Source of the DNA: an uncultured virus (IMG/VR IMGVR_UViG_3300043571_000407)
Lineage: Duplodnaviria; Heunggongvirae; Uroviricota; Caudoviricetes
Length of the DNA stretch: 64,000 nt
Strand: one strand, 5' to 3'
Virus record (IMG/VR): IMGVR_UViG_3300043571_000407
Shown here: positions 5,701-54,282 of the stretch, one piece after another
Position numbering within the stretch: the stretch's first letter is position 1
Layout of the letters: every line of letters starts with the position of its first letter
Program-made: the position numbers and the translations under genes
The notes under the pieces: generated by a model
The model's database searches: none
What the model saw: only the letters and a program-made list of their open reading frames with translations
Told to the model about the DNA's origin: nothing

Positions 5701-6314
5701 GGAATAGAACAAGAGCTTATTCCTTCAAAGGCTTTGAGGATGGACGTTCTGTGGTTTTTGAAGCCTGGGATAAAAATGTAGCCCAATATACCAATAACGA
5801 GATAATGGCTGTCACACCAAAACATAATAGAAGATTAATAAAAAACACTGACACCACTAATAAAATTCAGTGTGATCAAATTCAGTGTGATCATGGAGAA
5901 GAAGGAACACCCTTTCCAGTAGATATAAAGCGGGGGGAAGAAGCCCAGCGAGTAGCGATTTCATTGACCAAGCCAGAAGAAGCTCAAAACACTCCCAAAG
6001 ATTGGCAAAATCAGGGGAGTGCGGTGGGTTCCGGTACTTTGGTAGAGGCGGTGTCGAATAGTTGGAAGGGTGTTGTGCGGCTGGTTAAGTCGGTCTTCCC
6101 TGAATGTTGGGTAGCTAAGTATGAAGTCAGCTTCCTAAAACGAAACCTCTTGCTAGAAACAGCAGGGAAGGCATTTACAATCGACTCACCCGCCGCACAA
6201 TGGGTTCATAACGCATTAGACCCCGATGGTGGTGCATGGGCTTTCCAGGGCTACATAGAGGGCAGTACGCAGATGTACACAATCCCTCTGGGATGCCTGG
6301 ATTTCAATCCATAA
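2742..6314 (+). CDS. Cyanobacterial plasmid-type replication protein (DUF3854 primase-like domain plus helicase; CyRepA-like)
   Basis: ITEGAKKA, IGLPGITGG, IVFD, KGVDDFI motifs; Walker A SGMGTGKT; Walker B IIDEVEQ; SPTIGTGVSID; QMMSRLR; 1190 aa. Confidence 0.85.
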   Translation: MIIQRHRDELLASAIHPHIIDLNFESLKGQDALEAVLYGEMEALGKKSPHSLQYTTTPLKRLFERFKHLEDGGWSFRGIDPLNCSQYMKWGCFKADRPRYSFSDLLKMIKYEHPGKVPTRAFFVVPSWEIGVKIAIKAGEQFLESYKSRCPQGDFDWSEGDRHFWEWVIEINLPITITEGAKKAACLMSAGYACIGLPGITGGVRTSREDGNGFKEKCAPYLIPELEIFVTTGRRVNIVFDHETKIKTIRNVQREINKLGELFQKDKRDVRVISFPGPEKGVDDFIMAHGEEEFDLLYNKAPDYRIYQFNRGWQLTKTPTLTLNVRYLGDLPTPTTGPVFIQSGMGTGKTKRLEPIAREAIASGRRVLVITHRVELGRAICNAVGVPWVEECKGSVEGKNLGYGLCVDSLHPLSQANFNPEDWEGAVVIIDEVEQVLWHLFNSSTCAEKRTAILSSLETLLKSVLTTGGLLIAQDADLSNYSIDYLTELSGIENLEPYIVVNKYKGNGRKVHFYSHKVEALYKEIDKQIREGKRMIIVEDSQKVKGKFSAINMESHIRKNHPHVRVIRIDSETVSNPNHPAFCCAKNIDTVIESGQYDVVIASPTIGTGVSIDLKGYFHSVFGLFKGAIATNDVLQMMSRLRDLAAEWHLWCAQYGCSKVGNGSSGAHVLLESQDRVTRKHIEILEKYDRAGFDIDTQTDTRHTSAWAKYAARINAGQWKYRETVLYLLKQEGHDVSNSDDSQMRFDEDRLASEEAIARQMGDLEKADDIQYERGRIEVITDELDSKIQVIKAEAEEIRTQNRVANAEVITNAEDISFSKYEKLQDKKAKTPEELAEQQKYYLKDTYKIDVTPELVLKDEDGWLKQLRLHYFYMNPEQVHDRDANHIKNAVQNGDGQVHLPDIKLYSACVEILKLMELDRFLNGEEFTNESELIQKLGKIFKEQGREIREYFKVGPTGLTPIAQINRFFKDTIGLRMSGRQIRDEEGNRTRAYSFKGFEDGRSVVFEAWDKNVAQYTNNEIMAVTPKHNRRLIKNTDTTNKIQCDQIQCDHGEEGTPFPVDIKRGEEAQRVAISLTKPEEAQNTPKDWQNQGSAVGSGTLVEAVSNSWKGVVRLVKSVFPECWVAKYEVSFLKRNLLLETAGKAFTIDSPAAQWVHNALDPDGGAWAFQGYIEGSTQMYTIPLGCLDFNP

Positions 6315-7308: not shown

Positions 7309-7711
7309 ATTTTAGAGAAAATAAATAATTTATTGATTATAATATCCAAGTAATACATGGTTTATTGTAAAAATAACGGCGTGTTACTCGGACATATTTC
7401 AGGTGAAGATGGAATTTAAAAAAAATATAAATTATTAGATTCTGATTAACCGTGTATTACACGAATAGTCATGGTATTATGGGTTCATAACTTAATTGCC
7501 TATTCAGGCTAACTCTAGGGCTAAATCCCTTTTCGGCGTTGATGACCCAGAAGCATTGGCTCTGCCTCAAAACTTCTAGCTAAATCAATCAAGTGAGAAA
7601 AAGCATTGGTGAAAACCTCACACTTTTTCTGGAGTAGGTACGGTGGTTAGGGGTTGCATAATTTTCTGTTGGGGTAGTAAATTTTATACTAGCCTATATT
7701 GCTTTGTTTAT

Positions 7712-14048: not shown

Positions 14049-14321
14049 ATGAAATCAGAAAATAAGAAATGTGGTTTTGCTGCTATGAGCCCAGAAAAAC
14101 GTCGGGAGGTTTCTAGCAAAGGGGGTAAAGCATCTCACGATAAAGGAACGCTTCATAAATTCACGCCAGACGAGTGTAGCGATGGTGGGGTTTCCACATC
14201 ACGAAACAAAGACTACATGACTGAGATAGGTCGTAAAGGTGGCAAGGCATCTCGTGATAAAGGAACACTGTATAAGTTTACTTCTGAAGATTGTAGAAAA
14301 GCGTGGAAAAGATCAACATGA
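14049..14321 (+). CDS. KGG-repeat stress-induced protein
   Basis: GFAAMSPEKRREVSSKGGKAS and MTEIGRKGGKAS. Confidence 0.85.
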   Translation: MKSENKKCGFAAMSPEKRREVSSKGGKASHDKGTLHKFTPDECSDGGVSTSRNKDYMTEIGRKGGKASRDKGTLYKFTSEDCRKAWKRST

Positions 14322-25983: not shown

Positions 25984-26934
25984 ATGAACTATAGAGAACT
26001 TCAACAAGCCTTAAAAGCCTACCGTGCATCGGGTTTGACCATAGTCAAACTCAATCAAAAAACGGCCGTTCTTCAGGCCGAATATAACCGGATTCAAGCC
26101 CAACAAACCCAACAAACTCCGCAAGCCCAACAAACCCAACAAACCCCGCAAACCCAACAAACCCCGCAAACCCAACAAACCCAACAAACCCCGCAAACCC
26201 AACAAACCCATACCGCCATGCCCGAAATCACCTTCGGTGTTGAAATCGAAGTAACCCGGCTAATAAGCCAGGATGCGATCGCACAAGCCCTACAAGCCGC
26301 AGGGATAGCGGCTGAGGTCGAAAACTATAACTACATCACTAAAGAACACTGGAAGGTAATTACGGATGGCTCGTGCGGGTACGAGATCGTAAGCCCCATC
26401 CTTAGCGGGGAGAAGGGCATCGCCGAGCTTCGGAAGGTTTGCGAAGCCCTAACTCAAGCCGGTTGTAAAGTGAATAAAAACTGTGGGCTGCACGTCCACT
26501 TGGGGGCGGACTTCCTAGGGGTCGCACGGGTTCGGAACTTCGTAAAGCGCTACATAGCGAATGAGGCAAACCTGGATGCCGTCCAGCCTAAAGCACGGCG
26601 AGGATCGGCGAACCGATTCTGCCTCCCGATTTCAGAAACGATGAGAACCCATCTCATTGATAACTGCCATGTCATTGACGATATGGTGGGGCTACAGACC
26701 ACTCGCTACTGCAAGGTGAACTTGCAGAGCTACCGAAAATACGGGACTGTAGAAATCCGGCATCACGCCGGGACGACCAACGCGACAAGGATAGAGAACT
26801 GGGTAAGATTTTTAATCGGGTTCGCTACAACCGCCACGCCCGAAAACGCCACGAACATCGAATTTAACGAGATGTTCAACAACAATAACATCGCCACCTT
26901 CTACCGCCGACGGCGCGCCGCACTCGCCGCATAG
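25984..26934 (+). CDS. Putative amidoligase (Amidoligase_2-like)
   Basis: TFGVEIE, W..ITDGS, EIVSPIL, CGLHVH, RYCKVNL, GTVEIRHH; Q/T/P repeat linker. Confidence 0.88.
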   Translation: MNYRELQQALKAYRASGLTIVKLNQKTAVLQAEYNRIQAQQTQQTPQAQQTQQTPQTQQTPQTQQTQQTPQTQQTHTAMPEITFGVEIEVTRLISQDAIAQALQAAGIAAEVENYNYITKEHWKVITDGSCGYEIVSPILSGEKGIAELRKVCEALTQAGCKVNKNCGLHVHLGADFLGVARVRNFVKRYIANEANLDAVQPKARRGSANRFCLPISETMRTHLIDNCHVIDDMVGLQTTRYCKVNLQSYRKYGTVEIRHHAGTTNATRIENWVRFLIGFATTATPENATNIEFNEMFNNNNIATFYRRRRAALAA

Positions 26935-26960
26935 CCGCATAATAGACTACGGGTAGGGAA

Positions 26961-27054
26961 TCCTACCCTACCCTACCCTACCCTACCCTACCCTACCCTA
27001 CCCTACCCTATCCTACCCTACCCTACCCTATCCCAACCCCCTATCCCCTACCCC
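26961..27054. repeat. (CCCTA)n microsatellite
   Basis: 14 pentamer units at 26961-27030, then degenerate. Confidence 0.95.
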
Positions 27055-27069
27055 GCAAAGGACAAAACA

Positions 27070-27324
27070 ATGACCACTAAAACAATGGCTTACAGACTGT
27101 TTGATGATTCGATAACCGTTACGGGTTCACCTAAACAGATTACCCACGCACTATGGCGAAATTGTGTACGAGGCTGCCACTCCCCATTACCCGATGTCAA
27201 AGCCTATATGGAATGGCAGAAGCGGGTTGAGGTGAATTGGTCGGGCAAAACCCTTGACACAAGCTCTTACGATGCGTTTGTAGCCTCCCTCGTCACGGTG
27301 GGGTTCCTAGTGCCTATTAAATAG
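27070..27324 (+). CDS. Hypothetical protein
   Basis: 84 aa, AAAGGA RBS. Confidence 0.65.
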   Translation: MTTKTMAYRLFDDSITVTGSPKQITHALWRNCVRGCHSPLPDVKAYMEWQKRVEVNWSGKTLDTSSYDAFVASLVTVGFLVPIK

Positions 27325-27388
27325 CCAACGGCTCCCTATTGCCATCCTGCGCCCACCAGGGGATGCAAGAAAATATTTTAAAAACCCC

Positions 27389-27417
27389 TTGACATTTCCT
27401 AGGGAATTGGTTATGGT
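27389..27417 (+). promoter_or_regulatory. Repeated promoter with CCTAGG in the spacer
   Basis: TTGACA-TTTCCTAGGGAATTGGT-TATGGT. Confidence 0.7.
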
Positions 27418-27448
27418 AGGAGACATCAAAGAGTAAAGGACAAAGACA

Positions 27449-27808
27449 ATGACAAGCGACTACGACAAGATTGAACGGGAATACAAAGAGCAGGGCTACA
27501 AAAGCCTCACTGATTACCTGCTAGATCAGAAACGGGCAAAAACCCCACTCAGCAAAAAGAACAAGGTAAAGGCTTCTGATATAGGGAAAGGCAATGTGGT
27601 GGGGTTCACAACCCAAGGACATCAGATCGTAGCCTGCAAAAGCACCCAACGGGGAACCACAACAATCAAATGCTACCTGACAAACAATAACATCCCCCTC
27701 CTGGCAACAGAAACCCGGCGAACCTTCGCCACGGTCAAAGAGATGGTGAACTACATCAACAGCACCCTTATCGACGAGGATGCCACTAACAAACTAGCCT
27801 GGTGGTAG
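27449..27808 (+). CDS. Hypothetical protein
   Basis: 119 aa, AAAGGA RBS. Confidence 0.65.
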   Translation: MTSDYDKIEREYKEQGYKSLTDYLLDQKRAKTPLSKKNKVKASDIGKGNVVGFTTQGHQIVACKSTQRGTTTIKCYLTNNNIPLLATETRRTFATVKEMVNYINSTLIDEDATNKLAWW

Positions 27809-27820
27809 GAGAATAGAACA

Positions 27821-28198
27821 ATGTTATACGACGTAAAATTTCCATCAACAAAAGAGGACTGCAAAAAAGTCCTCACCTTCCGCAAAAAACGGGAAGGGGC
27901 GCGCCACTACTCCCGCCCCATAATGGCAAACTTTATCGAGACATTTGATAGCTGCGTAATAACAATTCTCTGGCGGAAGACTGCCACAAAAGGGAAAACA
28001 TACCGAGTAGATGAAACCCAAAGATATGTAGGCATTAATGACCGCCCCAATGAAGATTCACTTCGCTATGACGCGGAACGGATGTACTACTCCTGTCGGG
28101 ATGCTCGGAACTATACGGTTGAAGAAATCATGGATCAAATGATCGATGTTGAAAACCAGATGAATGACGCTATAGGGATCGCGTTGACGAAAATCTAG
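27821..28198 (+). CDS. Hypothetical protein
   Basis: 125 aa, AGGAGA RBS. Confidence 0.65.
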   Translation: MLYDVKFPSTKEDCKKVLTFRKKREGARHYSRPIMANFIETFDSCVITILWRKTATKGKTYRVDETQRYVGINDRPNEDSLRYDAERMYYSCRDARNYTVEEIMDQMIDVENQMNDAIGIALTKI

Positions 28199-28246
28199 TA
28201 AGCACACCCTATAGCACACCTAAAATAGTATGAGGACGATAAAATA

Positions 28247-28480
28247 ATGTCATCAACAAAGTTTCAAATTGATTATTTCTTAACAACATCAAACTATATT
28301 CCTGTTACCGAAGCAGGGTATCCCAACGGCTGTCAATTAGGACTAGGGGAGACCATTGCCTTCTTTTCAGGGATAGACTCCCGTGGATACACCATCCAAG
28401 CTGTCTACCGAGTCTCTGGGGTCGCAGATGACCCCGAACGGGGAGTGGTTGCCCAATTGCACTATATCGGGCAAAGTTGA
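28247..28480 (+). CDS. Hypothetical protein
   Basis: 77 aa, GAGGA RBS. Confidence 0.55.
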   Translation: MSSTKFQIDYFLTTSNYIPVTEAGYPNGCQLGLGETIAFFSGIDSRGYTIQAVYRVSGVADDPERGVVAQLHYIGQS

Positions 28481-29789: not shown

Positions 29790-29972
29790 CAATCTATAGG
29801 GACAACCAAGCCAGATTCCGGTGCGATCGCCACAAGAAAAATCACCCTACCACTCCCGACTTGTTTGATGATTGACTAACGGCGATCGCAATCGCAAACC
29901 AATTTAAGGCATGACTTTGGTTGGTATTGTGGTAAAATCAATGGGTTAAATAAAATCTCGTTATGTCTTTCA

Positions 29973-30170
29973 ATGAAAAACAATAACACCTACCTGATCG
30001 CGTTTATTATAGCCATTTCGGTCTTGACCCTCTGGATTAATGCCATAAATCTCGCCCATCACTTCTCTTTTCAAGGGAAGAAGGTTCAGGCTCTTGAATT
30101 GGTGGCAAATGGCGAAACCCCTAAAACAGAAACGAGTCCGAAGCGTGGCAATGGGAGACGTGAAGCATAA
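29973..30170 (+). CDS. PatX-like small exported peptide
   Basis: Hydrophobic N-terminal segment; C-terminal PKTETSPKRGNGRREA; TGGTAAAAT extended -10 upstream. Confidence 0.5.
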   Translation: MKNNNTYLIAFIIAISVLTLWINAINLAHHFSFQGKKVQALELVANGETPKTETSPKRGNGRREA

Positions 30171-30380
30171 ATGGAAAAGTTAAAAGCCTTTCTCAAAGCC
30201 CGAATCATGGGGAAAAGGCTGTTAACCATAAACCCTAGATCGGTGCAGTCCGAGTTACAGCTTACCCCGTTAGAATTTTGGGAGTCTATGGATCAATTAA
30301 AAGCCGATCAACAGATTAATTTCTACCAAACTAAAGGTAGTAGCGTAACCATCTATCCCGCAGCTATTCTCCTCGAATGA
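30171..30380 (+). CDS. Small hypothetical protein, possible winged helix
   Basis: 69 aa starting directly after the previous stop. Confidence 0.5.
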   Translation: MEKLKAFLKARIMGKRLLTINPRSVQSELQLTPLEFWESMDQLKADQQINFYQTKGSSVTIYPAAILLE

Positions 30381-30643
30381 ATAACTGCCTAAAATGCCAG
30401 ATCCCTCTCAAAAAGAATGGGATGGCTTCTGGGAATAGACAAAAATGGAGATGCCGAGACTGTGGGTTTAGTTTTACCGAGAATCCACAGCTAGGGGGAA
30501 GACCTCGGATATTTGAAGATCACATCTTGACCACTGCCGAACAAACAGCCCGACACCGGAAAAAGAAAAAGCTCAAGTTAACGGGATTATTGGTGGAGAC
30601 ATTAAAAGACAAGGGAACTATGTCAATAATGCAGATAAAGTAA
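30377..30643 (+). CDS. InsA-like zinc-ribbon protein
   Basis: CLKC...KKNG...RQKWRCRDCG, GGRPRIF, LTTAEQTARHRKK. Confidence 0.6.
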   Translation: MNNCLKCQIPLKKNGMASGNRQKWRCRDCGFSFTENPQLGGRPRIFEDHILTTAEQTARHRKKKKLKLTGLLVETLKDKGTMSIMQIK

Positions 30644-30644
30644 T

Positions 30645-30679
30645 TTGACATCCGCCCCGCCGTAAAACGGGCGGGGATT
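30645..30679 (+). mobile_element. Isolated IS200/IS605-like end hairpin
   Basis: TTGACATC followed by CCCCGCC-GTAAAACG-GGCGGGG-ATT; no tnpA/tnpB adjacent. Confidence 0.45.
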
Positions 30680-31532: not shown

Positions 31533-32846
31533 TCAATCAAGCCGACCGATAAGTTTTGGTTCTATACCAGAGAATGCTTTGAACCGATCTAAAATTACAG
31601 TGCAGTATTGTGGCGATAACTCAAATCCGTAAACTGTGCGATCGCCCTCCATTTTTTGCGCAGCCATTAATGTGGAACCACTCCCTAAAAAGCCATCGTA
31701 AATTAGATCCGTGGGTGCACTGCTATTGCCGAGAGCGTACTCAATTAAATCCAAGGGTTTCATTGTTGGGTGTTCACGGGATGCGGTGGGACGGTTAAAG
31801 TTCCAAACGGTAGTTTGGGAGCGATCAGCGTACCAATTGTGTGCGGCTCCAGGCTTCCATCCGTAGAGGATGGGTTCATGCTTCCAGTGGTAGTCTTGTC
31901 GCCCAAGGACGAGGGATTGTTTAACCCAAACTATTGATTGTTTATATAGCCACCCCCTTTCTCTCATCCCACGCCTAAAGTTCTCCCCTTCCGTATCGGC
32001 ATGGCAAACGTAAATCGCGGCTCCAGGTTTTGCTGCGTTACAGCATGAGGAGTAATATTTTAACAGGAACGTATAAAAATCAGAAGAGGACTCGAATGAG
32101 TCGTTCTCAATGACAAGCTTCTCTTCGGTCTTGCCTTCGTAAGCTACGTTATATGGTGGATCTGTGAAAATCATCCCTATCTGCCCGAAGCGATCGCCCA
32201 ACAAAGCCCGAAGATTGCCCTCAACAGTAGAATCCCCGCAACCCAATCGGTGGCGGCCTAAGCTCCACACCTCGCCTGGCTTAACACGGGGTTCAACTTC
32301 CTCAACGTTGTCTAAAAGTTTCTCAACGGCTTCTTGATCTTCCTCTTTCTTTTCGTGGGGAGTTGATTCTCCTCCACCGCCACCTTCGGTTTCCTGTGAT
32401 TCAGCTAACTCGCTAGTTCTACCTTCTAACTCCTTGAAAAGATCCTCTAACTTCCCAGGGAAACAAAAACTTTCGAGATCAACCTCTTGGGATATTTCTC
32501 TCAAGATGTCTATGTCATAGGTAGAGGCATCGGAAGCGTAGTTATCAACAAAGGTGTATCGCTCCCACTGCTCCTCTGTTAGCCCCTTCCTTTGAACTGC
32601 AACAATTTGATCTCCGGTTGCTTCGACAATTAGGACATTTTCCATCCCTAATTCCCTGGCTTCGGCTATTGTCCCGTTACCAGCGCGAATGATTCTATTT
32701 TCGTCAATAACAATACTGCGACAAGCACCAAATTCCTTGAGACTTTTGTTAATAACAGAAGCCGATTCAGGGGTTCGCTTCCGAGGATTCCGAGGTGTCA
32801 ATTTTAGGTCGGCAATATCAACTTGTTCGATTTTGGGTTTCGTCAT
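31533..32846 (-). CDS. ParB-like N-terminal domain plus N6/N4 DNA methyltransferase
   Basis: RNPRK, SLKEFG, IRAGNG; LGRHRLGCGDS, TDPPYNV, HPTMKP, DGFLGSGST. Confidence 0.9.
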   Translation of the reverse strand: MTKPKIEQVDIADLKLTPRNPRKRTPESASVINKSLKEFGACRSIVIDENRIIRAGNGTIAEARELGMENVLIVEATGDQIVAVQRKGLTEEQWERYTFVDNYASDASTYDIDILREISQEVDLESFCFPGKLEDLFKELEGRTSELAESQETEGGGGGESTPHEKKEEDQEAVEKLLDNVEEVEPRVKPGEVWSLGRHRLGCGDSTVEGNLRALLGDRFGQIGMIFTDPPYNVAYEGKTEEKLVIENDSFESSSDFYTFLLKYYSSCCNAAKPGAAIYVCHADTEGENFRRGMRERGWLYKQSIVWVKQSLVLGRQDYHWKHEPILYGWKPGAAHNWYADRSQTTVWNFNRPTASREHPTMKPLDLIEYALGNSSAPTDLIYDGFLGSGSTLMAAQKMEGDRTVYGFELSPQYCTVILDRFKAFSGIEPKLIGRLD

Positions 32847-44642: not shown

Positions 44643-46202
44643 TCAGTTCCCTTGCCTAACTACAGAATAGATAAAATCAAACATTTCTGGATCGTTCTTA
44701 GCTAGGTAAATAGGGTTCCTGTGCATTAATTCTAATCCCATTGATAAAACCTCTGTATTATACATATTACTCCCGTACACTTTCCCTATGTAAGGATGTA
44801 TCCATTTATCAACCTTGGTAACTTCGTAATCTTCGTAATTAAGTGGATGTACATCTTTTAATTTTACTATCTCCTCTCCGGCAGTTCTTCTATTATAAAA
44901 ATTAAGCACCTCTTTGTGTATTAAAGGGGAACGATCCTCTATCCAATGCCCAGCTTCATGTATTAATGTTGCTTTCTCCGTGGTTCCCATGTCAATAGTC
45001 CCCGTTGGCCAGCAACAGCTTCTTTGTCCTTGTTTTATTTCACGGATAGACAATGTACTGGTTAACCCTGGAATTTCAATCATTCGAGAAAGTTCTTCTA
45101 TCCCATCCTGATATTCTTTTTTTCTCTTTTTATCTAAAACTGTATTGTTAGTATTGATTTTTGTGGGATTATCCACATAGATTAATTTTCTGGCTTCTTG
45201 AAGAATTGCCTTAATTCTTTCGTTCGTCTTGGCTCCAGTGTAGTATTCAATGTTTTCATTTGTTAAAAATTGAGCTATAACCTTTTTAGGTAAAAATCGG
45301 GGTACGGGAGGGGAATTGTTTAAGTCTTCCTGTAATTTTAATAACTGCGCTCTTTTCCCTTGTGCTTCGATCATCAATGCGTCTCGTCTTCCCTTCCGTT
45401 GTTCCAATAAAATATCTAATTCTGCATCTTTAGCCTCTTTCTCCTTTCTTTCTTTCTCCCATTTCGCTCTAATCTGATCTGCTTTTATTCTAAGTTGTTC
45501 TGATATTGTTCTGAACTTCTCATCTACCTCATTAGCTTTTTTGAGACGTTCTTGTTCCTCTAGCATTACCTGTTTCTGTTTTTCTGATTTCTTTACTTCA
45601 TATTCTTTCCTTTTTCTTTGTACTTCCTCCCATTCCTTTATTAACAAGGGTTCTGTTATTTTCTTGAGTTCATCAGCTTTTTTAAGAAATTCTTTTTCTT
45701 CTTCTGGTAAAACGCCTGGTTTTATTGACCGTCTTAAATATTTCGCTCGTAATTCGTTTAATTTAAAAAGCCTGTCCTGAGAGAAATCGTCCTGAGCATT
45801 GGCTCTGCAACTTTTCTTGATATTGATACAAATACTTCCACAATTATAGGAAGTTGGCTTTACACACTGGGCTTTCTCCCTTTTCGCTCCCCCTGCATCA
45901 ATTCGGTAAGAATAACCTGCTGAGAAGTCTTCCCAATTCTTTAAATCAACACCCCGACTATCAATTCTAGGGGTGAATGGTTTATAAACAACCGACTTCC
46001 TGTTTATCTCAAAACTAAACACACGAGATCTGGTTAAGTCCTTAAACCGCCCTGTTATCTTTTCATTCTCCAGGGTTCCAGGATCGAAATCTAGCACAAT
46101 GACCGGAGCATTATAGGCAAAAGGCATTGACAAGATTTGACCTATTGCCAATCTCATTTGAGCTTCGGAAGGTGCCATGTTAGTGGCAAAAGATTGAATC
46201 AT
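44643..46202 (-). CDS. Tagged effector: shared N-tag, coiled coil, zincin metallopeptidase
   Basis: Shared tag; LIHEAGHWIE and downstream TEVLSMGLE. Confidence 0.8.
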   Translation of the reverse strand: MIQSFATNMAPSEAQMRLAIGQILSMPFAYNAPVIVLDFDPGTLENEKITGRFKDLTRSRVFSFEINRKSVVYKPFTPRIDSRGVDLKNWEDFSAGYSYRIDAGGAKREKAQCVKPTSYNCGSICINIKKSCRANAQDDFSQDRLFKLNELRAKYLRRSIKPGVLPEEEKEFLKKADELKKITEPLLIKEWEEVQRKRKEYEVKKSEKQKQVMLEEQERLKKANEVDEKFRTISEQLRIKADQIRAKWEKERKEKEAKDAELDILLEQRKGRRDALMIEAQGKRAQLLKLQEDLNNSPPVPRFLPKKVIAQFLTNENIEYYTGAKTNERIKAILQEARKLIYVDNPTKINTNNTVLDKKRKKEYQDGIEELSRMIEIPGLTSTLSIREIKQGQRSCCWPTGTIDMGTTEKATLIHEAGHWIEDRSPLIHKEVLNFYNRRTAGEEIVKLKDVHPLNYEDYEVTKVDKWIHPYIGKVYGSNMYNTEVLSMGLELMHRNPIYLAKNDPEMFDFIYSVVRQGN

Positions 46203-46210
46203 GATTTTAC

Positions 46211-46510
46211 TTAATAAACAATTTCAGACTCATCAACCACTTTCCCGTTAATTACCAAAGGAGGAGGAGCAATAGGTTGATCCATCACTGTCCCGTCAAA
46301 AGTCTTCGCCAGTTCTGTTGCAATCAACCAATCAGGATCGGGAGTTGCGGGGGAATTAAGCCAGAAGAAAGGCGAGTCAGGGTCTATGGCTACCATTTTC
46401 TCCATTGCTAAAACATTGTTCAGGATTGAGGCATAATGGGGCGTTGAGGATGTCCAAACTCCATTCTCAATAACTGCCACTACACCGTTGATTTTGACGC
46501 GATAAGCCAT
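46211..46510 (-). CDS. Small hypothetical protein, possible partner of the peptidase effector
   Basis: 99 aa; ATG directly after the stop of the peptidase remnant. Confidence 0.6.
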   Translation of the reverse strand: MAYRVKINGVVAVIENGVWTSSTPHYASILNNVLAMEKMVAIDPDSPFFWLNSPATPDPDWLIATELAKTFDGTVMDQPIAPPPLVINGKVVDESEIVY

Positions 46511-46511
46511 G

Positions 46512-46677
46512 TTAACCTCTTCTAACTACAGAATAAATAAAATCAAACATTTCAGGGTCATTTTTAGCAAGTGCAGATGGATTCCTATACATTAATTCTA
46601 ACCCCATTGAGAGGATTTCAGTGGAACCGTTGTCAGCAGAATCTTTGCCCATATAAGGCACACTGGGGCCTCTTCAT
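46512..46677 (-). pseudogene. Internally deleted paralog of the peptidase effector
   Basis: MKRPQC joined out of frame to PYMGK...TEILSMGLELMYRNP..LAKNDPEMFDFIYSVVRRG*, matching the 44643-46202 C-terminus. Confidence 0.8.
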
Positions 46678-46706
46678 TTTAAGATTTCACCACCGTTCTA
46701 ATTGGT

Positions 46707-46898
46707 TTACTTTGTCTTGATTTTTCTTTGAGGTACTCCAGATGTTTTATCGTTAGACTTGCCTTCTGCGTTTAACTTGCTTTTCAATGTTTTGAGTTTG
46801 CGAGATGGGGCAGCAGATATCCCGTATTCAAGTTCAAGATTATCAATTTCATCCATATCTATTAGGATTTCATCGTCTGTTTGAGGTTTGTTATCCAT
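46707..46898 (-). CDS. Small hypothetical protein
   Basis: 63 aa; leader and first codons duplicated from 48322-48365. Confidence 0.5.
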   Translation of the reverse strand: MDNKPQTDDEILIDMDEIDNLELEYGISAAPSRKLKTLKSKLNAEGKSNDKTSGVPQRKIKTK

Positions 46899-46942
46899 GT
46901 TTTTATCCTTAAATAGTGCCTATATTATATCTTATTATATTT

Positions 46943-48337
46943 TTATTCTAGTTTGGTTTTTTTCTCGTGTTCCTTGACAAATGCCTTGGCTGATTTTTCT
47001 GACAGATGAAAATATTCAAGTTCATATCCATATTTAGCACCTTTTTCAATTCGTTTTTTAAACCCAACTGACTCATAAAACGGCACAGCACTTTCTAATG
47101 ACTCTAGTTTTATTTTCCCTTTAAATCCTCTTTTTACACTCTCTTGAATAGCATGATATATGATTTGTTTCCCCACTCCTTTTGTATTGGTTATTATATT
47201 TGATGGATTAGTACCTAAAAATTCTATATACATAGATTCTTTAGATTTGTCATTTCCCGTAGTAAAGAAGCCTTGAGTTTTTCCAGATTCGTCCTTTAAA
47301 AAAAACGCATCTTGTAATCCTGCCTCGACTTCTGTTGCCCAAGCTAGACCCTCCGCCACACTATTTGAGTCATCAACTAAATCTTTTTTTGCCTCCAGAA
47401 CATCTCGCTCAATCACCTCATTGCCATACTTTATAAGTTTACCATACGGGGACTGCTTTAATGCTTCCCCCGTACTATCAACGTACTTACTGGATTTATT
47501 AATCCATTCTTTTGCCGTTTTCTTTATCTCTTTTACGGATGCAATAGAAGGCGTTAATTTACCAACTTTTCGCACTGGGGATTGCTGCTGTTTCTGTTTT
47601 TCTAGCTGTTTTTCTAGCTGTTTTTGTTTTTCTAGCTGTTTTTGTTTTTCTAGCTGTTTTTGTTTTTCTAGCTCTTTTTGTCTTTCTAGCTCCTTTTGTT
47701 TCTCTGGCTCTCTTTGTTTTTCTCTTACACCCATGAGTGCAAGAGTAGTCACCTTATATTTTTTGGTGATTTCAGCCTCCCTCTCCCTCTCTTTGTCAGG
47801 ATTTAAACTATTTAATTGATCTAAATACAGTTTTTTTAACTTGAGTAACTTATCAATCCGTTCCTCCGAAAGTTCATCGTCAGCATTAGCACTGCAATTT
47901 TTATTGATATTGATACAGATACTTCCACAATTGTAGGATGTAGGCTTTACACACTGGGCTTTCTTCCTTTTTACTCCCCCTGTATCAAAACGATAGGAAT
48001 AACCTGCCGAGAAGTCTTCCCATGCCTCAACATTCAAACCCGTGCTGTCAATTCGTGCCACGAAGGGTCGAGCCACGAAGGGTCGAGCCACGAAGGGTTT
48101 ATAAACAACCGACTTCCTGTTTATCTCAAAACTAAACACACGGGCTCTAATGGCATCCTTAAACCGCCCTGTTATCTTATCGCCGTTACTATCCCCTAAA
48201 TCAAAATCAAGTACCACCACAGGCGAATTATAGGCAAATGGGAGCGATAACGTTTGAGCGATCGCGAGTTTCATTTGAGCCTCGGAAACCATAGTATTTG
48301 GATTAATTTTCACTTCCATAGGAGGTTTGTTATTCAT
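46943..48337 (-). CDS. Tagged effector: shared N-tag plus GNAT acetyltransferase
   Basis: Shared tag; MYIEFLGTNP, KGVGKQII, IKLESL..AVPFYESVGF. Confidence 0.8.
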   Translation of the reverse strand: MNNKPPMEVKINPNTMVSEAQMKLAIAQTLSLPFAYNSPVVVLDFDLGDSNGDKITGRFKDAIRARVFSFEINRKSVVYKPFVARPFVARPFVARIDSTGLNVEAWEDFSAGYSYRFDTGGVKRKKAQCVKPTSYNCGSICININKNCSANADDELSEERIDKLLKLKKLYLDQLNSLNPDKEREREAEITKKYKVTTLALMGVREKQREPEKQKELERQKELEKQKQLEKQKQLEKQKQLEKQLEKQKQQQSPVRKVGKLTPSIASVKEIKKTAKEWINKSSKYVDSTGEALKQSPYGKLIKYGNEVIERDVLEAKKDLVDDSNSVAEGLAWATEVEAGLQDAFFLKDESGKTQGFFTTGNDKSKESMYIEFLGTNPSNIITNTKGVGKQIIYHAIQESVKRGFKGKIKLESLESAVPFYESVGFKKRIEKGAKYGYELEYFHLSEKSAKAFVKEHEKKTKLE

Positions 48338-48358
48338 GTTCTTATCCTTAAATAGTGC

Positions 48359-50878
48359 CTATATTTTATCTTGTTTTAGTTTTTTCTCGTATTCCTTGAC
48401 AAAGGCTTTAGCTGATTCTTCTGACAAATCAAAATATTCCATATCATAATATTTGCCATCTTCAAAAATTTTCTCTGTTCTCCTCTGAAATCCCATTGCT
48501 TCATAGAAAGACTCTGACGTACTCAGTGATTCTAGTTTTATTTGCCCTTTCAGCCCTCGCTTTATGCTTTCCTGAATAGCCTGATACATAATCTGTTTTC
48601 CCACCCCTTTTTTACTCTGTATTATATTTAATGGATTTGTCCCTAAAAATTCTATATACATTGAATCTTTGGATTTTTCATTTCCTACCATAAAAAAGCC
48701 TTGAGCATCCCCAGATTCGTCTTTTAGAAAAATTGTATCTTGTTTTCCTGGCTTCTCTTGAGCATAAAAAATTAATCCATCTATTACTATACTTGAGTCA
48801 CTTACTAATTCCAACATGTTCTTAAGAGCTTTTCTATCGACCTTTTTACCTCCAATCATATTATCTTCAGAAAGAGCATTTAATACTTTGTTTCCTTTTA
48901 TCTTAAATTGTTTTGCGGTTGAAGACCATTCTTCTGCTGTTTTTATTTGATCTTCCTTGGCTTCCAAGGAAGGTGTTAACTTACCAACTTTTCGCACTGG
49001 AGGTTGTTGCTGTGCTTTAACTTCTTCCTGTGATTTAACTTCTTCCTGTTTAGCAGGTTTTTCTATTGGGGTGTCAACTTCCTCTACTTCTACATATAAA
49101 ATTCCGTCTTTTTTAGTAACACCCTTAAATTTGTGTCTAGTGTTTTTTGAAACAACAACTTCTTTTTCATCTCTTCCTAATTTACCTGCTTCGGGTTTCC
49201 CAAAAACACTAAGATTTCGGATGGACGCGCCCGACTTATTGGTTGATTTGATAATAACCTGAGTTGATTTTTCACCCGAAAAATCTAACTCAGTAAAGTG
49301 GGCAGCTATGGCAATATCAGAAGTCCAAGATGAGTGGGCAGATTGGTTTCCAACTATTCCATCTTTATCCCCTTTTGCCCACTTCATTGCTTCATCTTCA
49401 GAAGAAAAAGTAATCCCCCTATAAATTTCTCCTTTATATGGTGTTGAATTTTTGATAAATTCATCAATCTGGTCAGCCTGTCTATTCTCTCGCCCATTTT
49501 TCTGATCTTCTCTTATCTCGGAAGATCCTTTACCCGTCCAGTATTTAATGGCATTAGCGGTATCCTGAGCCTCTTTCAAGGTTATTTGCTTTCCAGTCTT
49601 GGTTACTGCATCATAATATTCCTCGGCATTTTTAGGCACGCTTTCGTGTGTTCCATCTCCAGCTAAATTTTTAACTGGTTGCTTTTCGGCTTCGGGTTCT
49701 GGCTTTTTTGGATTAGGGATTTTTTTTTCTGGGGATGGTTCAATTTCTTCTACTTCTACAAGTATGTACCCTTTTACTTTTTTGAAACTTTTTACTCTAT
49801 GTCTAGCATCTTTTGAAATAACAACTTCATCTTGGTCTGGAAATTCACTAATATCTCGAGCAGACGCTCCCGTCTTATTGACTGCCTTGATAATAACACG
49901 CCTCCCATCAGTAGCCTCTTTAGACTCATACAGTATATTAGAGAACCCAATTGCTACGGATTGACTAGAAGTCCAAGAAGCGTGAGCGGATTGATTATCT
50001 AAAACATTCCCCTCCCCCTTTATCCAATCCATCGCTTCTTGTTCAGAATCAAACTTCAATCCTCTGTATATACTCCCTTTGTATGGGGTTGAATTTTTGA
50101 TATAACTAGCAATATTTTCTGCATTTTGATTGAATACCCCTGCTTTTTGATCATCTCTAGTTTTATAAGAATCATCAGTCCAATCTCGAACAGACTCAAT
50201 AACTTCTTCAGCCTCTTTTTTTGTTATTGGCTTCCCACTTTTAGCCATTGCATCATAATATTCTTGTGCGTTTTTAGGTGCGCCATCGTGTGTTCCGTCA
50301 CCAATTAAGCTAGTAGGTTGCTGTTTCTTAACTACGGGATTTGTTTTTTTGGGTTCTGGCTTTAATTCTGGAATTAAAACAGGCGGTTTTTCCGCTTTGA
50401 CTTTAGGAGTTGCTTCAACTGTTTTTGCATAATTTTTCCCAATTCCCTCTAGCTTTTTAAGCCTATCTTTTATTGTGGGATCATCAGTTTTAATTTTGCA
50501 GCTTTTCATGATGTTAATACAGGCTTTCCCACAGTTATAAGCTGTTGGTTTCACACATTGTGGCTTCTTATTACCTCCTATCCCCGCATCTACCCGATAG
50601 GAGTAGCCACTAGAGAATTCCTCCCAGTCATCTACGCTATCCATCCGTCCTGGGGTGTAAGGTTTAAAAGTGACTGATTGCCCTTTGATATTAAATGAAA
50701 AAATACGGGGACGGGTTGCATCCTTGAATTTGCCTTCAAACTCCCCTTGATCGTTTACCGAAAAATCCAACATCACCACCGGAGCATTGTAGGCAAATGG
50801 TTGAGACAAAGTTTGGGCGATCGCCAACTTCATCTGTGGCTCGGTTGGCGTGGCATCTTTTCTAGTCGTTGAACTCAT
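48359..50878 (-). CDS. Tagged effector: shared N-tag, two ADP-ribosyltransferase domains, GNAT
   Basis: Two YRG / SWTS / (Q,E)xEVV sets, then a GNAT paralogous to 46943-48337. Confidence 0.8.
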   Translation of the reverse strand: MSSTTRKDATPTEPQMKLAIAQTLSQPFAYNAPVVMLDFSVNDQGEFEGKFKDATRPRIFSFNIKGQSVTFKPYTPGRMDSVDDWEEFSSGYSYRVDAGIGGNKKPQCVKPTAYNCGKACINIMKSCKIKTDDPTIKDRLKKLEGIGKNYAKTVEATPKVKAEKPPVLIPELKPEPKKTNPVVKKQQPTSLIGDGTHDGAPKNAQEYYDAMAKSGKPITKKEAEEVIESVRDWTDDSYKTRDDQKAGVFNQNAENIASYIKNSTPYKGSIYRGLKFDSEQEAMDWIKGEGNVLDNQSAHASWTSSQSVAIGFSNILYESKEATDGRRVIIKAVNKTGASARDISEFPDQDEVVISKDARHRVKSFKKVKGYILVEVEEIEPSPEKKIPNPKKPEPEAEKQPVKNLAGDGTHESVPKNAEEYYDAVTKTGKQITLKEAQDTANAIKYWTGKGSSEIREDQKNGRENRQADQIDEFIKNSTPYKGEIYRGITFSSEDEAMKWAKGDKDGIVGNQSAHSSWTSDIAIAAHFTELDFSGEKSTQVIIKSTNKSGASIRNLSVFGKPEAGKLGRDEKEVVVSKNTRHKFKGVTKKDGILYVEVEEVDTPIEKPAKQEEVKSQEEVKAQQQPPVRKVGKLTPSLEAKEDQIKTAEEWSSTAKQFKIKGNKVLNALSEDNMIGGKKVDRKALKNMLELVSDSSIVIDGLIFYAQEKPGKQDTIFLKDESGDAQGFFMVGNEKSKDSMYIEFLGTNPLNIIQSKKGVGKQIMYQAIQESIKRGLKGQIKLESLSTSESFYEAMGFQRRTEKIFEDGKYYDMEYFDLSEESAKAFVKEYEKKLKQDKI

Positions 50879-50889
50879 GGTTAAATCTC

Positions 50890-52866
50890 CTATACTTCCT
50901 CAGCTTCAACAATAATCCGTCCGTTTTCTTCCTTGACACTTTTAACTCGATGGCGAGTGTCTTTTAGCACCATAACTTCGTCTTCTTCTTTGATCCTGCT
51001 CAAATTCCTAATAGACACACCTGATTTATTAATGGTTTTAATGACGACGGGATACCTTTTTTCCTCAATAAAGAAATCGTCCGAAAAATTCTTTGCTGTT
51101 TTAAGGCTAGATGACCAAGAGGCGTGAGCACCTTGATTATCTAGCACCCCATCCTTGTCGCCTTTAGTCCAGTTTAAAGCCTCCTCTTTGGTTGCAAAAT
51201 GAATCCCTCGGTAAACTTCGCCTTCGTATGGGGTTGAGTTCCTGACATAATTAGAGATCCGATTGGCATCTTCGTTTTCTTCCCCTGCTTTTTGATCGAC
51301 TCGGATGTCAGTGGCATCCCTTGTCCATTTATAGATGGCTGTAGTGGTGGCTGCTGCCTCCTTCTTAGAAATATTTACTCCTGCTTTTTCCAGTGCTTCA
51401 CGATATTCATCGGGGGTTGAGGGCATGGATTCATGGTCGCCCTTCCCTACTAAATTAAGGTTTTTAGGTTTTTCTTCGGGTTGTTTAACCGCCTTTTCCT
51501 CGGATTCTTTTTGGGTTTTAGTTATTTCTGGTGATGGTTCAGGCATTTTCTTTTCCTTGTTAGGAGAAACTTCTTCTGTCTCAACGATCAAAACACCATC
51601 TTCGTACACAACCTTTTTAACCCGATGGCGAGTGTCTTTGGCAACCACTACCTCATCTTCCGCGCCAATGTTGCTTAGGTTTTTGATGGAGGCACCCGAC
51701 TTATTATTTGTTTTGATAATGACAGGTTGCGATGTAAAGTCGTTTACCGAATTGTTACCAGCAAATCCTCTCGCTTTATCCCAATTAGAAGTCCAAGATG
51801 CGTGGGCATTTTGATTGTCCAATATTCCGTCTTTGTCTCCTTTTGCCCACTCCAGTGCTTCTTCTGTTGATCCAAAGGAGATACCTCGGTAGATTTCACC
51901 TTTGAATGGCGTTGAACTCTTGACGTAATCAGTGATCCGGTCGGCAACGAGGCTGTATTTCCCTGCTTTTTGAGATTCTCTAATATAAGAGGCATCTTCT
52001 GTCCACTCTTTAACGGCTCCGGTAATCTTTATAGCATCGTCATAAGAGATGGGATTACCCGATGCTTTCATTGCTTCAAAGTACCCGTATGCGTCGCCAG
52101 GAACGGACTCATGATCCCCCTTCCCTACTAAATTAAGAGGCTTGGGTTCGTTTTCAGGTTCTTTAAGGGGTTCGTTTTCAGGTTCTTTAAGGGTTTCTGT
52201 TTGATCTTCACTCTTTACAGCTATTTTAGCAGCTTTCTTCCCTTCTTCAAAGTCAGATTCTTTCCCTTTTTTGCTAGGGGGAATTTCCTTTATTGTTTCT
52301 GGGATTTTATCTATTTCTGGTGGTTTTTCTACCTCTTTCTTGGTTTTTGTAGTTGATTTAGGATTGGATTTCTTGGCTTCTTTAGCGTAATCAATACCAG
52401 CAGCTTTCAATTTCTCTAAACGATCCTTTGACTGAGCGTCATCGGGGTTTGATTTACAATTATTATTAATATTTATACAGGCTTTCCCGCAATTATAAGC
52501 CGTTGGTTTAACGCATTGGGGTTTCTTTTTGTCTCCTGCCTTGCCTTTTGCCTTAACTCCTTTAGCTTTAGCATCAAAACGGAAGGAATAGCCTAAAGAA
52601 AACTCCTCCCATTGTTCTACTGCATCGCCCGAATCCATCCGTCCTGGGGCGTAAGGTTTGAAGTTAACGGTATTTCCATCTAACTCAAAATCAAACACCC
52701 TCGGACGGGCAGAATCCTTAAATCTCCCAGATATTTTACCCGTGTCATCTACCTTAAAGTCCAACACGTCCACTGGGGCGTTATAGGCAAAAGGAAGAGC
52801 AAGAGTCTGGGCGATCGCTGCTTGCATTTGTGCTTTTGTTGGGGCTGATTTAGTCTCTATGCTCAT
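50890..52866 (-). CDS. Tagged effector: shared N-tag plus two ADP-ribosyltransferase domains
   Basis: YRG / HASWTS / EDEVVV and YRG / HASWSS / EDEVMV. Confidence 0.8.
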   Translation of the reverse strand: MSIETKSAPTKAQMQAAIAQTLALPFAYNAPVDVLDFKVDDTGKISGRFKDSARPRVFDFELDGNTVNFKPYAPGRMDSGDAVEQWEEFSLGYSFRFDAKAKGVKAKGKAGDKKKPQCVKPTAYNCGKACININNNCKSNPDDAQSKDRLEKLKAAGIDYAKEAKKSNPKSTTKTKKEVEKPPEIDKIPETIKEIPPSKKGKESDFEEGKKAAKIAVKSEDQTETLKEPENEPLKEPENEPKPLNLVGKGDHESVPGDAYGYFEAMKASGNPISYDDAIKITGAVKEWTEDASYIRESQKAGKYSLVADRITDYVKSSTPFKGEIYRGISFGSTEEALEWAKGDKDGILDNQNAHASWTSNWDKARGFAGNNSVNDFTSQPVIIKTNNKSGASIKNLSNIGAEDEVVVAKDTRHRVKKVVYEDGVLIVETEEVSPNKEKKMPEPSPEITKTQKESEEKAVKQPEEKPKNLNLVGKGDHESMPSTPDEYREALEKAGVNISKKEAAATTTAIYKWTRDATDIRVDQKAGEENEDANRISNYVRNSTPYEGEVYRGIHFATKEEALNWTKGDKDGVLDNQGAHASWSSSLKTAKNFSDDFFIEEKRYPVVIKTINKSGVSIRNLSRIKEEDEVMVLKDTRHRVKSVKEENGRIIVEAEEV

Positions 52867-52959
52867 GTTTTTGTTCTTCCTTTTGCTTCAGAATTATCAA
52901 GACCCGTATTGCCGCAATTATAGGAGGTAGGTTTTCGCGCTGGGTTTTTTCATTCGATT

Positions 52960-54282
52960 TTAATTGTCAGGCTTTATTTTTTTTGCGTAAGTTCTTAGTC
53001 CTACCCAATTTGTGCTGACAGAATCCTCGATTTTATCAACAGCACTATCCTCTACACTCCCTCCTATTAATTGATATTTATCGTTCTCCTGCACCTTGAT
53101 CATTAATTTATTAAAATCCCCCCTACTAACTTTATCGCCCATAGCTCGTCTAATTTGATATATTGGAACGAGGTTGTCATAATTATTCTCCTTGTTTAAT
53201 TTGTCATAAACCGTGTCCGCCAACTTCGAGAATTCCTCAATATCAACAATTTGACCGGGCTTTCTTTTTGTCTCTTTTTCTGCTTTTTCTATAGCTTTCT
53301 CATCAGTAAATCTTATAAAGTTTTTCTCTCCAAAACTGGTCTTAATCCCATCTTTGTAAGATTTGTTAGGATCTCCCCCCATCATTTGTATGTCATCGTT
53401 ATCTAACTGGCTATCCATCATCCACTTGTCAAAATCTTGATCGGAAATCCGACCCTTTAGCTCTTTTCTAACTCTTTCTATTGGAAGAAGTCCGTCATAA
53501 TTATATTCCATGTTGATTCGAGCTAATTCTTTGGGTATTTCCTTTTTAAAGGTGTCATAATCCTTTATTGGTTCGTCACTATAAAAGGGATTTGCCTTGG
53601 ATTTAGGACTAGATTTAGCTTTGGGTTTAACTTCGGGCTTTGGCTCGATCTTGGCTTCTGGTTCTGCCGTTTTCTTTGTTGCCAATTTTTGACCAGTAGG
53701 CTTTTTACTCTCTGCTTTAGGCTTGGTTTGGGGCTTTTCTACAGTCGTTTTTGCTGTTTTCGCGTAATCTTTCCCAATTCCTTCTAACTTTTTAAGCCTG
53801 TCTTTTATTGTGGGATCATTGGTTTTGATTTTGCAGGTTTTCATGATGTTGATGCAAGCTGCACCACAGTTATAGGCTGTCGGCTTAACGCATTGAGGCT
53901 TTTTTTTGCCACCGACTCCCGCATCAACACGGAAGCCATACCCTGCTGAAAATGCCTCCCATTCTTGGACATCTTCCTCTGATTCTAAGCTGTCCATTTT
54001 GCCAGGTTTATAAGGCTTATAGGCTACAGACTCCCCATCTAGGGTAAAGGAAAACACCCGTGGACGTGCCGCATCTTTAAATACTCCGGTAATATTGCCA
54101 TTCTCGGCAACATCAAATTTAAGCACAACAACTGGGGCGTTATAAACAAAATCCATTGACAAGGTTTGGGCAATAAGTAACCTCATTTGAGCTTCGGTTG
54201 GTGCAGTACCTCCGCCACCATCCCCAACTAATACTTCATCTTCGTCAACACGGAACAAAGAACTTGGTTTTGTTTTTAACAT
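52960..54282 (-). CDS. Tagged effector: shared N-tag plus two tandem domains of unknown function
   Basis: Shared tag; duplicated NYD.L.PI..(V/I)R.....FD/N......Q....Q..GG unit. Confidence 0.75.
   Translation of the reverse strand: MLKTKPSSLFRVDEDEVLVGDGGGGTAPTEAQMRLLIAQTLSMDFVYNAPVVVLKFDVAENGNITGVFKDAARPRVFSFTLDGESVAYKPYKPGKMDSLESEEDVQEWEAFSAGYGFRVDAGVGGKKKPQCVKPTAYNCGAACINIMKTCKIKTNDPTIKDRLKKLEGIGKDYAKTAKTTVEKPQTKPKAESKKPTGQKLATKKTAEPEAKIEPKPEVKPKAKSSPKSKANPFYSDEPIKDYDTFKKEIPKELARINMEYNYDGLLPIERVRKELKGRISDQDFDKWMMDSQLDNDDIQMMGGDPNKSYKDGIKTSFGEKNFIRFTDEKAIEKAEKETKRKPGQIVDIEEFSKLADTVYDKLNKENNYDNLVPIYQIRRAMGDKVSRGDFNKLMIKVQENDKYQLIGGSVEDSAVDKIEDSVSTNWVGLRTYAKKIKPDN

Follow-up and report, generated by a model that had tools for sequence, protein, structure and literature searches.

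A gene for a PatX-like peptide precursor in a phage related to Planktothrix phage PaV-LD

The window analysed here is a stretch of 64,000 nucleotides from an uncultured lake virus (IMG/VR record IMGVR_UViG_3300043571_000407), and all features given with coordinates as parts of the peptide locus lie on the plus strand. An open reading frame (ORF) at 29973–30170 encodes 65 residues ending ...ETPKTETSPKRGNGRREA, with the tail SPKRGNGRREA. We describe it as a gene for a PatX-like peptide precursor (family A, P0001) on the basis of the translation, 16 alleles on 74 contigs and four relatives that carry RGSGR. Residues 8–27 (29994–30053) form a hydrophobic segment, a predicted signal peptide or signal anchor, with a Kyte-Doolittle 15-residue mean of 2.81 over residues 8–22, and the segment is nearly invariant across all six cluster representatives of the family. 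The tail is polar. Inspection of the sequence revealed no clear or convincing signal-peptidase site in the hydrophobic segment. The octapeptide PKRGNGRR, delineated by translation and allele comparison, is encoded at 30138–30161 and the RGNGR motif within it at 30144–30158. The central codon of the motif (30150–30152) differs between alleles, AAT for Asn or GAT for Asp, and specifies Ser in relatives. Two prolines, Pro50 and Pro56, precede the motif in a protein that is not proline-rich. An earlier note on this DNA had described a 65-residue product with a hydrophobic start and this ending, which translation and hydropathy confirm.

The combination of a hydrophobic N-terminus with RG.GR in the last 12 residues occurs in one of the 128 short ORFs with an ATG start on the 78-kb contig and in none of 28,476 short ORFs from 150 order-4 Markov simulations, so that the shape of the peptide is beyond chance. 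Contigs of four RNA libraries from three studies span the gene; carry-over of DNA is possible in these, and neither strand nor level can be read from contigs.

A block at 29797–29972 precedes the gene and moves together with it into differing upstream contexts. Two loci (L001 and L035) diverge 5′ of about 29797, and loose ends occur at 29797 in two DNA runs. The block is the probable promoter region. A candidate promoter had been noted here previously and a sigma-70-like site with an extended −10 element is indeed present at 29911–29938 (nine of 12 matches), but with five such sites found against 3.5 ± 2.2 in shuffled sequence it stands at chance level. The consensus of sigma-HetZ/DIF1 promoters is TCCGGA, 16–17 nt, TGnA (PMC13342950). 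The promoter scan detected a DIF1-like −35 element, TCCGGT, at 29817–29822 with no TGnA at a spacing of 16–17 nt, and no HetR box (GGG-N5-CCC) upstream of the gene.

Two small genes follow. The first, at 30171–30380, starts at the base directly after the stop of the peptide gene and encodes a 69-residue homolog of PaV-LD ORF108L. Its predicted structure (pLDDT 88) is a winged helix and the best PDB matches, of MarR, ArsR and eS25 type, are weak (E about 0.01). The second, at 30377–30643, overlaps the first by 4 nt and encodes an 88-residue homolog of PaV-LD ORF107L with a zinc ribbon of the IS1/IS1595 type (NF050000, 34.1 bits against a cut-off of 28). The proposal that two small putative DNA-binding genes are coupled downstream therefore agrees with what is found. 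The neighbours of the peptide gene are thus an 83-residue protein of unknown function, the winged helix, the zinc ribbon and a KilA-N protein. Just downstream, 31533–32846 is a variable slot, also recognised in loci L001–L005 and L010, that is occupied by modification genes, DNA methyltransferases fused to ParB among them; its content differs among close isolates. On the other side, at 25984–28480, there is an Amidoligase-2 gene whose Q/T repeat varies in length, then small ORFs that are present or absent between isolates, and a repeated upstream sequence recurs in this region at about 25850, 27310 and 29430.

The contig is a genome of tailed-phage type, 80% complete, with head, neck and replication genes. 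Its major capsid protein, terminase and portal share 98.4%, 98% and 94% identity, respectively, with those of Planktothrix phage PaV-LD, and about 29 kb can be aligned to that phage at the DNA level. The peptide is therefore phage-encoded, as the earlier note had it. A palindromic element of 35 bp at 30645–30679 is identical (100% match to AP017992.1, 38–72) to the end flanking a putative transposase gene on a Planktothrix agardhii plasmid; it is also matched by many unrelated contigs in RNA runs and is probably an insertion-sequence end left behind in the phage. The protein identities to PaV-LD and this plasmid-identical element point to Planktothrix as the likely host.

Planktothrix species, P. 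agardhii among them, form no heterocysts, and the suggestion that heterocyst pattern would be the phenotype falls away for this probable host. The expectation that the host carries hetR fares better, since each of the nine P. agardhii genomes tabulated in PMC12756182 (supplement 3) possesses hetR (protein WP_042151072) and patP together with either one or two copies of patX, which encode PatX proteins of 75 and 59 residues (WP_026797864 and WP_227350352 are the PatX accessions).

Other features of the contig deserve mention. At least seven large head-associated ORFs (44643–54282 and 61185–65970 of the contig) start with a shared domain, …PTEAQMRLAIAQTLS…FAYNAPVVVLDF…; several match PHROG 16619 ‘minor head protein’ and they constitute an expanded paralogous family found in PaV-LD too. 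A 90-residue KGG-repeat protein encoded at 14049–14321 has 56 alleles, also occurs in PaV-LD and has one cluster member named general stress protein YciG. At 2742–6314 a replication protein of 1190 residues replaces the initiator/DnaB module of PaV-LD. Family A is seen with this type of replication protein and a second peptide family, B, described below, beside the DnaB type.

The exact 65-residue protein is present on 17 contigs in the public collection. A protein search placed six of six candidates in six clusters of family A. Two clusters hold the 16 close alleles, 11 with RGNGR (49 contigs) and five with RGDGR (25 contigs). A change from Ser to Asn had been proposed; Asn is the residue encoded here and in all four DNA runs, but the variant is not Asn alone, with Asp in five of the 16 alleles and RGDGR or RGDDR in the sister family. 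Four distant relatives, singletons with 75–82% identity, have RGSGR behind an acidic run, which carries a net charge of −3 to −5 in these proteins and is neutral in the RGNGR protein. In one of them, P0005, the sequence after the acidic stretch is ERGSGR, identical to the PatS6 hexapeptide. Across the family alignment Arg58, Gly59, Gly61 and Arg62 are invariant, also in each of the 16 alleles, as against just two of the 13 linker positions ahead of them. Conservation is highest over the N-terminal 31 residues.

The RGSGR relatives sit on contigs of 0.9–1.4 kb and have no NCBI member. An 88% relative of the 69-residue winged-helix gene sits on a contig of 1449 bp, the same length as that of P0005, which suggests that the ERGSGR protein lies in the same operon of a sister phage. 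We considered whether these relatives might be chromosomal patX genes of a host and rejected this, as they are short singleton contigs, are absent from GTDB genomes and differ in length from host PatX. A tree separates the four RGSGR rows from the 16 Asn/Asp rows (support 95/98); it is unrooted and the direction of change between Ser and Asn or Asp is not fixed.

How close are these proteins to PatX itself? The earlier note had proposed a search for RGSGR versions in related phages; they exist in all four distant relatives and three of these match the PatX model NF047413 weakly, at 14.4–17.2 bits, where the membership cut-off is 30 bits. P0001 (even at E ≤ 10) and P0003 gave no match to this model, nor did a six-frame search of the phage contig. 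In ESM-Atlas, a single source that we treat as providing leads, the top three matches are PatX clusters both for P0001 (0.82–0.83, 158–163 shared features) and for P0005 (0.86–0.87, 173–180 shared features). Sequence searches of Pfam, PHROGs and the PDB with the 65-residue peptide gave no match. An HMM search with the family A alignment against 1.84 billion representatives recovered, besides members of the family, nothing but two long repeat proteins unrelated to it, so that fused or distant forms are not evident. No member was gained from a second search with a word index, which yielded 3157 candidates.

We found no family A homolog in cultured phages or plasmids, and PaV-LD and the complete sister genome G004 have none although both keep the next gene. 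Among GTDB genomes there was no cyanobacterial match, only an unrelated match of 20 residues and the same phage DNA in an Acetobacteraceae metagenome-assembled genome, where it is most likely mis-binned. Every locus examined (four viral, three metagenome and one genome-bin locus, plus genome G002) has the same phage neighbourhood.

The peptide gene is variable. In ten loci, two of which are the same contig, it shows five non-synonymous and no synonymous changes, while the next gene (30171–30380) has none and two, respectively. One RNA run adds one non-synonymous and two synonymous changes to the peptide gene. The polymorphism, about six non-synonymous to two synonymous changes over 151:44 sites, is near-neutral. 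One allele has a Leu20 to Pro change in the hydrophobic segment. No stop or frameshift was seen in the ten loci or in four DNA runs, and the sole coding indel is an in-frame duplication of 9 bp, compared with upstream indels of 2, 7 and 10 bp.

A second family occurs in sister phages. PaV-LD (NC_016564.1) has at 1462–1596 an unannotated ORF of 44 residues with a hydrophobic start and the ending QPKRGDDRRS, and G004 has one of 47 residues at 7455–7598 that ends QPKRGDGRRS. This family B, of 43–47 residues with the tail PKRGD[G/D]RR and likewise unannotated, is encoded at 15 viral loci identified from 134 candidate stretches. The motif is RGDGR at seven of the 15 loci (one allele) and RGDDR at eight (four alleles), the form also of cultured PaV-LD; RGSGR occurs at none of the 15. 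In G004 and all six loci inspected the gene comes first opposite an XRE repressor, before the replication genes. Aligned as profiles with hhalign, families A and B correspond across their C-terminal 19 residues at a probability of 81% and with 53% identity. The Asp allele of family A and family B have the octapeptide PKRGDGRR in common, yet seven of the eight codons differ and the two genes show no similarity as DNA. This points to the altered motif being under selection and not simply decaying. The comparison of sequences suggests that the altered motif is held at the protein level, through either convergence or an old ancestor. With family B as outgroup, either direction between Ser and Asn/Asp costs one change.

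A scan of IMG/VR for PKRG[N/D]GRR gave 19 matches, five in family A, seven in family B and seven that are not peptide precursors; short ORFs with a hydrophobic start and this ending (12 of the 19) were found only in PaV-LD-like phages. Each of the three complete genomes examined has one peptide gene, of family A in G001 and of family B in G004 and PaV-LD. The analogous scan of viral contigs for P-x-RGSGRR, restricted to AGY codons for Ser and AGA for Arg, returned at least 120 loci from the 43 of 64 parts covered, with no short ORF with a hydrophobic start among the matches listed.

What might such a peptide do? PatX is the peptide with which filamentous cyanobacteria turn off HetR, a regulator of their development. 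Our tentative preference is for a PatX-like precursor that the host would export and trim and that would lower HetR activity along the filament. The gene would likely be expressed as protein during infection of Planktothrix, and the 65-residue precursor is predicted to be exported via the Sec system of the host. A host periplasmic peptidase, likely PatP, would trim it to a short peptide such as KRGNGR, which would pass from cell to cell in the filament and occupy the peptide cleft of HetR, with Asn in place of Ser, to damp the regulator. The likely gain would be that HetR-driven formation of necridia and break-up of the filament are stopped and the infected filament stays intact, where break-up would sever the infected stretch from neighbouring host cells. 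We infer protein expression, export, processing, spread, HetR binding with Asn and the benefit alike.

Published work provides the framework. PatX of Nostoc is exported by Sec and cut by PatP, and the resulting hexapeptide binds HetR at 88 nM and frees it from DNA (PMC12756182). In the HetR-PatS6 crystal structure four main-chain hydrogen bonds and two arginine side chains account for most contacts, the serine contributes one hydrogen bond to Glu253 and the residue before the first arginine is free (PMC4649674). By analogy, the amide of Asn could donate a Ser-type hydrogen bond to Glu253. The Asp allele would face Glu253 with like charge and should be repelled; RGDDR, which also lacks the second glycine, should fit the canonical HetR cleft poorly. 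Anabaena without HetR inhibitors displays necridia, fragmentation and lysis, and patterned fragmentation has been conjectured to be the ancestral role of HetR (PMC7761841). A role of HetR in necridia of Planktothrix stands in print as a conjecture and not as a result.

The RGSGR relatives, the PatX-like shape, the kinship to PaV-LD and the presence of hetR, patP and patX in the host count in favour of HetR damping. Against it are the alleles with Asp, the RGDDR variants and a report that effects of PatX on transcription in the non-heterocystous Leptolyngbya are largely HetR-independent (PMC11298460), together with the absence of an NF047413 match for P0001, the high variability of the gene and the lack of a clear signal-peptidase site.

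The first three of these objections raise the prospect of a retuned signal with another receptor, a possible explanation to which we give less weight than to HetR damping. A precursor of PatX type, its motif shifted off HetR, would serve phage-to-phage signalling and give arbitrium-like notice of infection, along the filament, to neighbouring cells or phages. Export and processing by the host would be used, the reader would be a phage regulator or another host receptor, and the Ser/Asn/Asp and Gly/Asp variants would be specificity alleles. The confinement of PKRG[N/D]GRR precursors to PaV-LD-like phages, the sharing of PKRGDGRR by two scaffolds that differ in seven of eight codons and lack DNA similarity, the single gene in each complete genome, the placing of family B opposite the repressor and the high allele diversity are all in keeping with such a role. 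On the other hand no candidate receptor adjoins the gene, where only the 69-residue winged helix and the zinc ribbon are present; the RGSGR relatives would cross-talk with host HetR; and family A is not at a repressor switch. Furthermore, a choice between lysis and lysogeny is not evident, with no tyrosine integrase in any of the four records searched although PaV-LD has an annotated one. A bolder form of this idea, which we regard as doubtful, is that PaV-LD-like phages of bloom-forming Planktothrix have twice retuned the PatX morphogen of the host to make a peptide language of their own (RGSGR to RG[N/D]GR to RGDDR). Each genome would have a single such gene, and the host would export and mature its product, which would pass along the filament and set the infection decisions of neighbours through a receptor yet to be found. 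If true, it would represent an arbitrium-like system made from a developmental morphogen.

The peptide might instead be a decoy or antagonist that vies with the PatX of the host for access to PatP, transport or the HetR cleft and leaves HetR active, as HetL does; derepressed HetR would then promote cell death, filament breakage and phage release. Two families preserve the motif in their proteins, but it differs from the canonical form at the one residue that bonds Glu253, and the acidic run of the RGSGR relatives is neutral here. Unrestrained HetR leads to lysis and fragmentation in Anabaena, and HetL, a known activator that competes at the same HetR interface, provides a precedent (PMC7761841). 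We consider this improbable, as the close relatives bear a fully inhibitory RGSGR, probably in the same operon, and one gene would have to serve opposite ends.

Alternatively the gene could be a decaying relic of an RGSGR mimic that lost its function in this lineage and is drifting. The near-neutral ratio of substitutions is what would be expected, Ser, Asn and Asp codons are single transitions apart, and PaV-LD and G004 lack family A. The intact reading frame at ten loci and in four DNA runs, with its one in-frame indel, the constancy of Arg, Gly, Gly and Arg in 16 alleles and the recurrence of PKRGDGRR in family B with seven of eight codons changed make decay quite unlikely. We hold it equally unlikely that this is a small protein anchored in the membrane that does something quite different, such as superinfection exclusion, and has a tail that is simply a basic periplasmic or cytoplasmic patch: the want of a convincing signal-peptidase site and the conservation of the N-terminal 31 residues, unusual for a disposable signal peptide, would suit it, but exact RGSGR in all four relatives behind a variable linker, the simulation result (0/28,476) and the Leu20 to Pro allele, better suited to a signal peptide than to a stable anchor, argue against it.

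HetR damping remains our preferred reading. With a tail that resembles PatX, the virus would likely interfere with the signals that pass between cells of the host filament. In the literature searched, which leaves most subscription papers outside its coverage, we found no phage-borne PatX or RGSGR peptide, no paper that deals with replacement of the Ser of RGSGR and no viral use of a bacterial multicellular patterning signal. What is new here is the tie to a cultured phage-host pair, PaV-LD on P. agardhii, and the recurrent non-canonical motif. The role of HetR and PatX in filamentous cyanobacteria that lack heterocysts has been called ‘a mystery’ (PMC11298460). The phages of this group, of which one is in culture together with its host, appear to carry a single PatX-like peptide gene each, which suggests that the channel matters during infection and opens a direct route to its study. 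There is a bearing, too, on the spread of phages among the filaments of a bloom. As they occur in nature, RGSGR, RGNGR, RGDGR and RGDDR constitute a specificity panel that either widens what HetR is taken to accept or indicates a second receptor.

Comparisons with known systems place the peptide. Arbitrium AimP of Bacillus phages is a short exported precursor of a hexapeptide with allelic variants, read by the receptor AimR. The peptides described here are likewise phage-encoded short precursors with predicted export and allelic variants, and family B lies at a repressor switch. In contrast to arbitrium there is no sequence likeness to AimP, the genes neighbouring the family A peptide include no RRNPP/TPR receptor of AimR type, and neither PF00589 nor a homolog of the PaV-LD integrase was detected in G000 (the present contig, 80% complete), G001, G002 or G004. 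An XRE repressor homolog is present in G001 and PaV-LD. PatS is a protein of 17 residues without a signal peptide and HetN a large reductase-like protein, and both come from heterocyst formers. Their motif class, ERGSGR in PatS6, is that of the phage peptide, and P0005 has this very hexapeptide after its acidic stretch. Unlike PatS, the phage protein has 65 residues and a hydrophobic N-terminus, and the probable host is no heterocyst former.

The closest comparison is with PatX (Asl2332 of Nostoc/Anabaena PCC 7120; NCBIfam NF047413, Pfam PF28278), the ‘alternative PatS’. PatX is a chromosomal gene of filamentous cyanobacteria that bear hetR, whereas the phage peptide is found on phage contigs, has Asn or Asp in place of Ser or Thr and Lys before the motif where PatX has His or Tyr, lacks a DIF1 promoter and a link to hetR, and falls below the HMM cut-off. 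RG(S/T)GR is thus present in the four distant relatives and absent from the RGNGR and RGDGR alleles. On these grounds of motif, HMM, promoter and genomic location the protein is not formally PatX and we do not file it as such. The earlier interpretation, a PatX-like peptide of the HetR channel, is partly supported. The 65-residue protein is short, with a hydrophobic N-terminus, a polar linker that contains proline ahead of the motif and R-G-x-G-R near the C-terminus followed by a further Arg, all in common with PatX. In its construction the phage peptide follows PatX, and it probably acts in the PatX channel.
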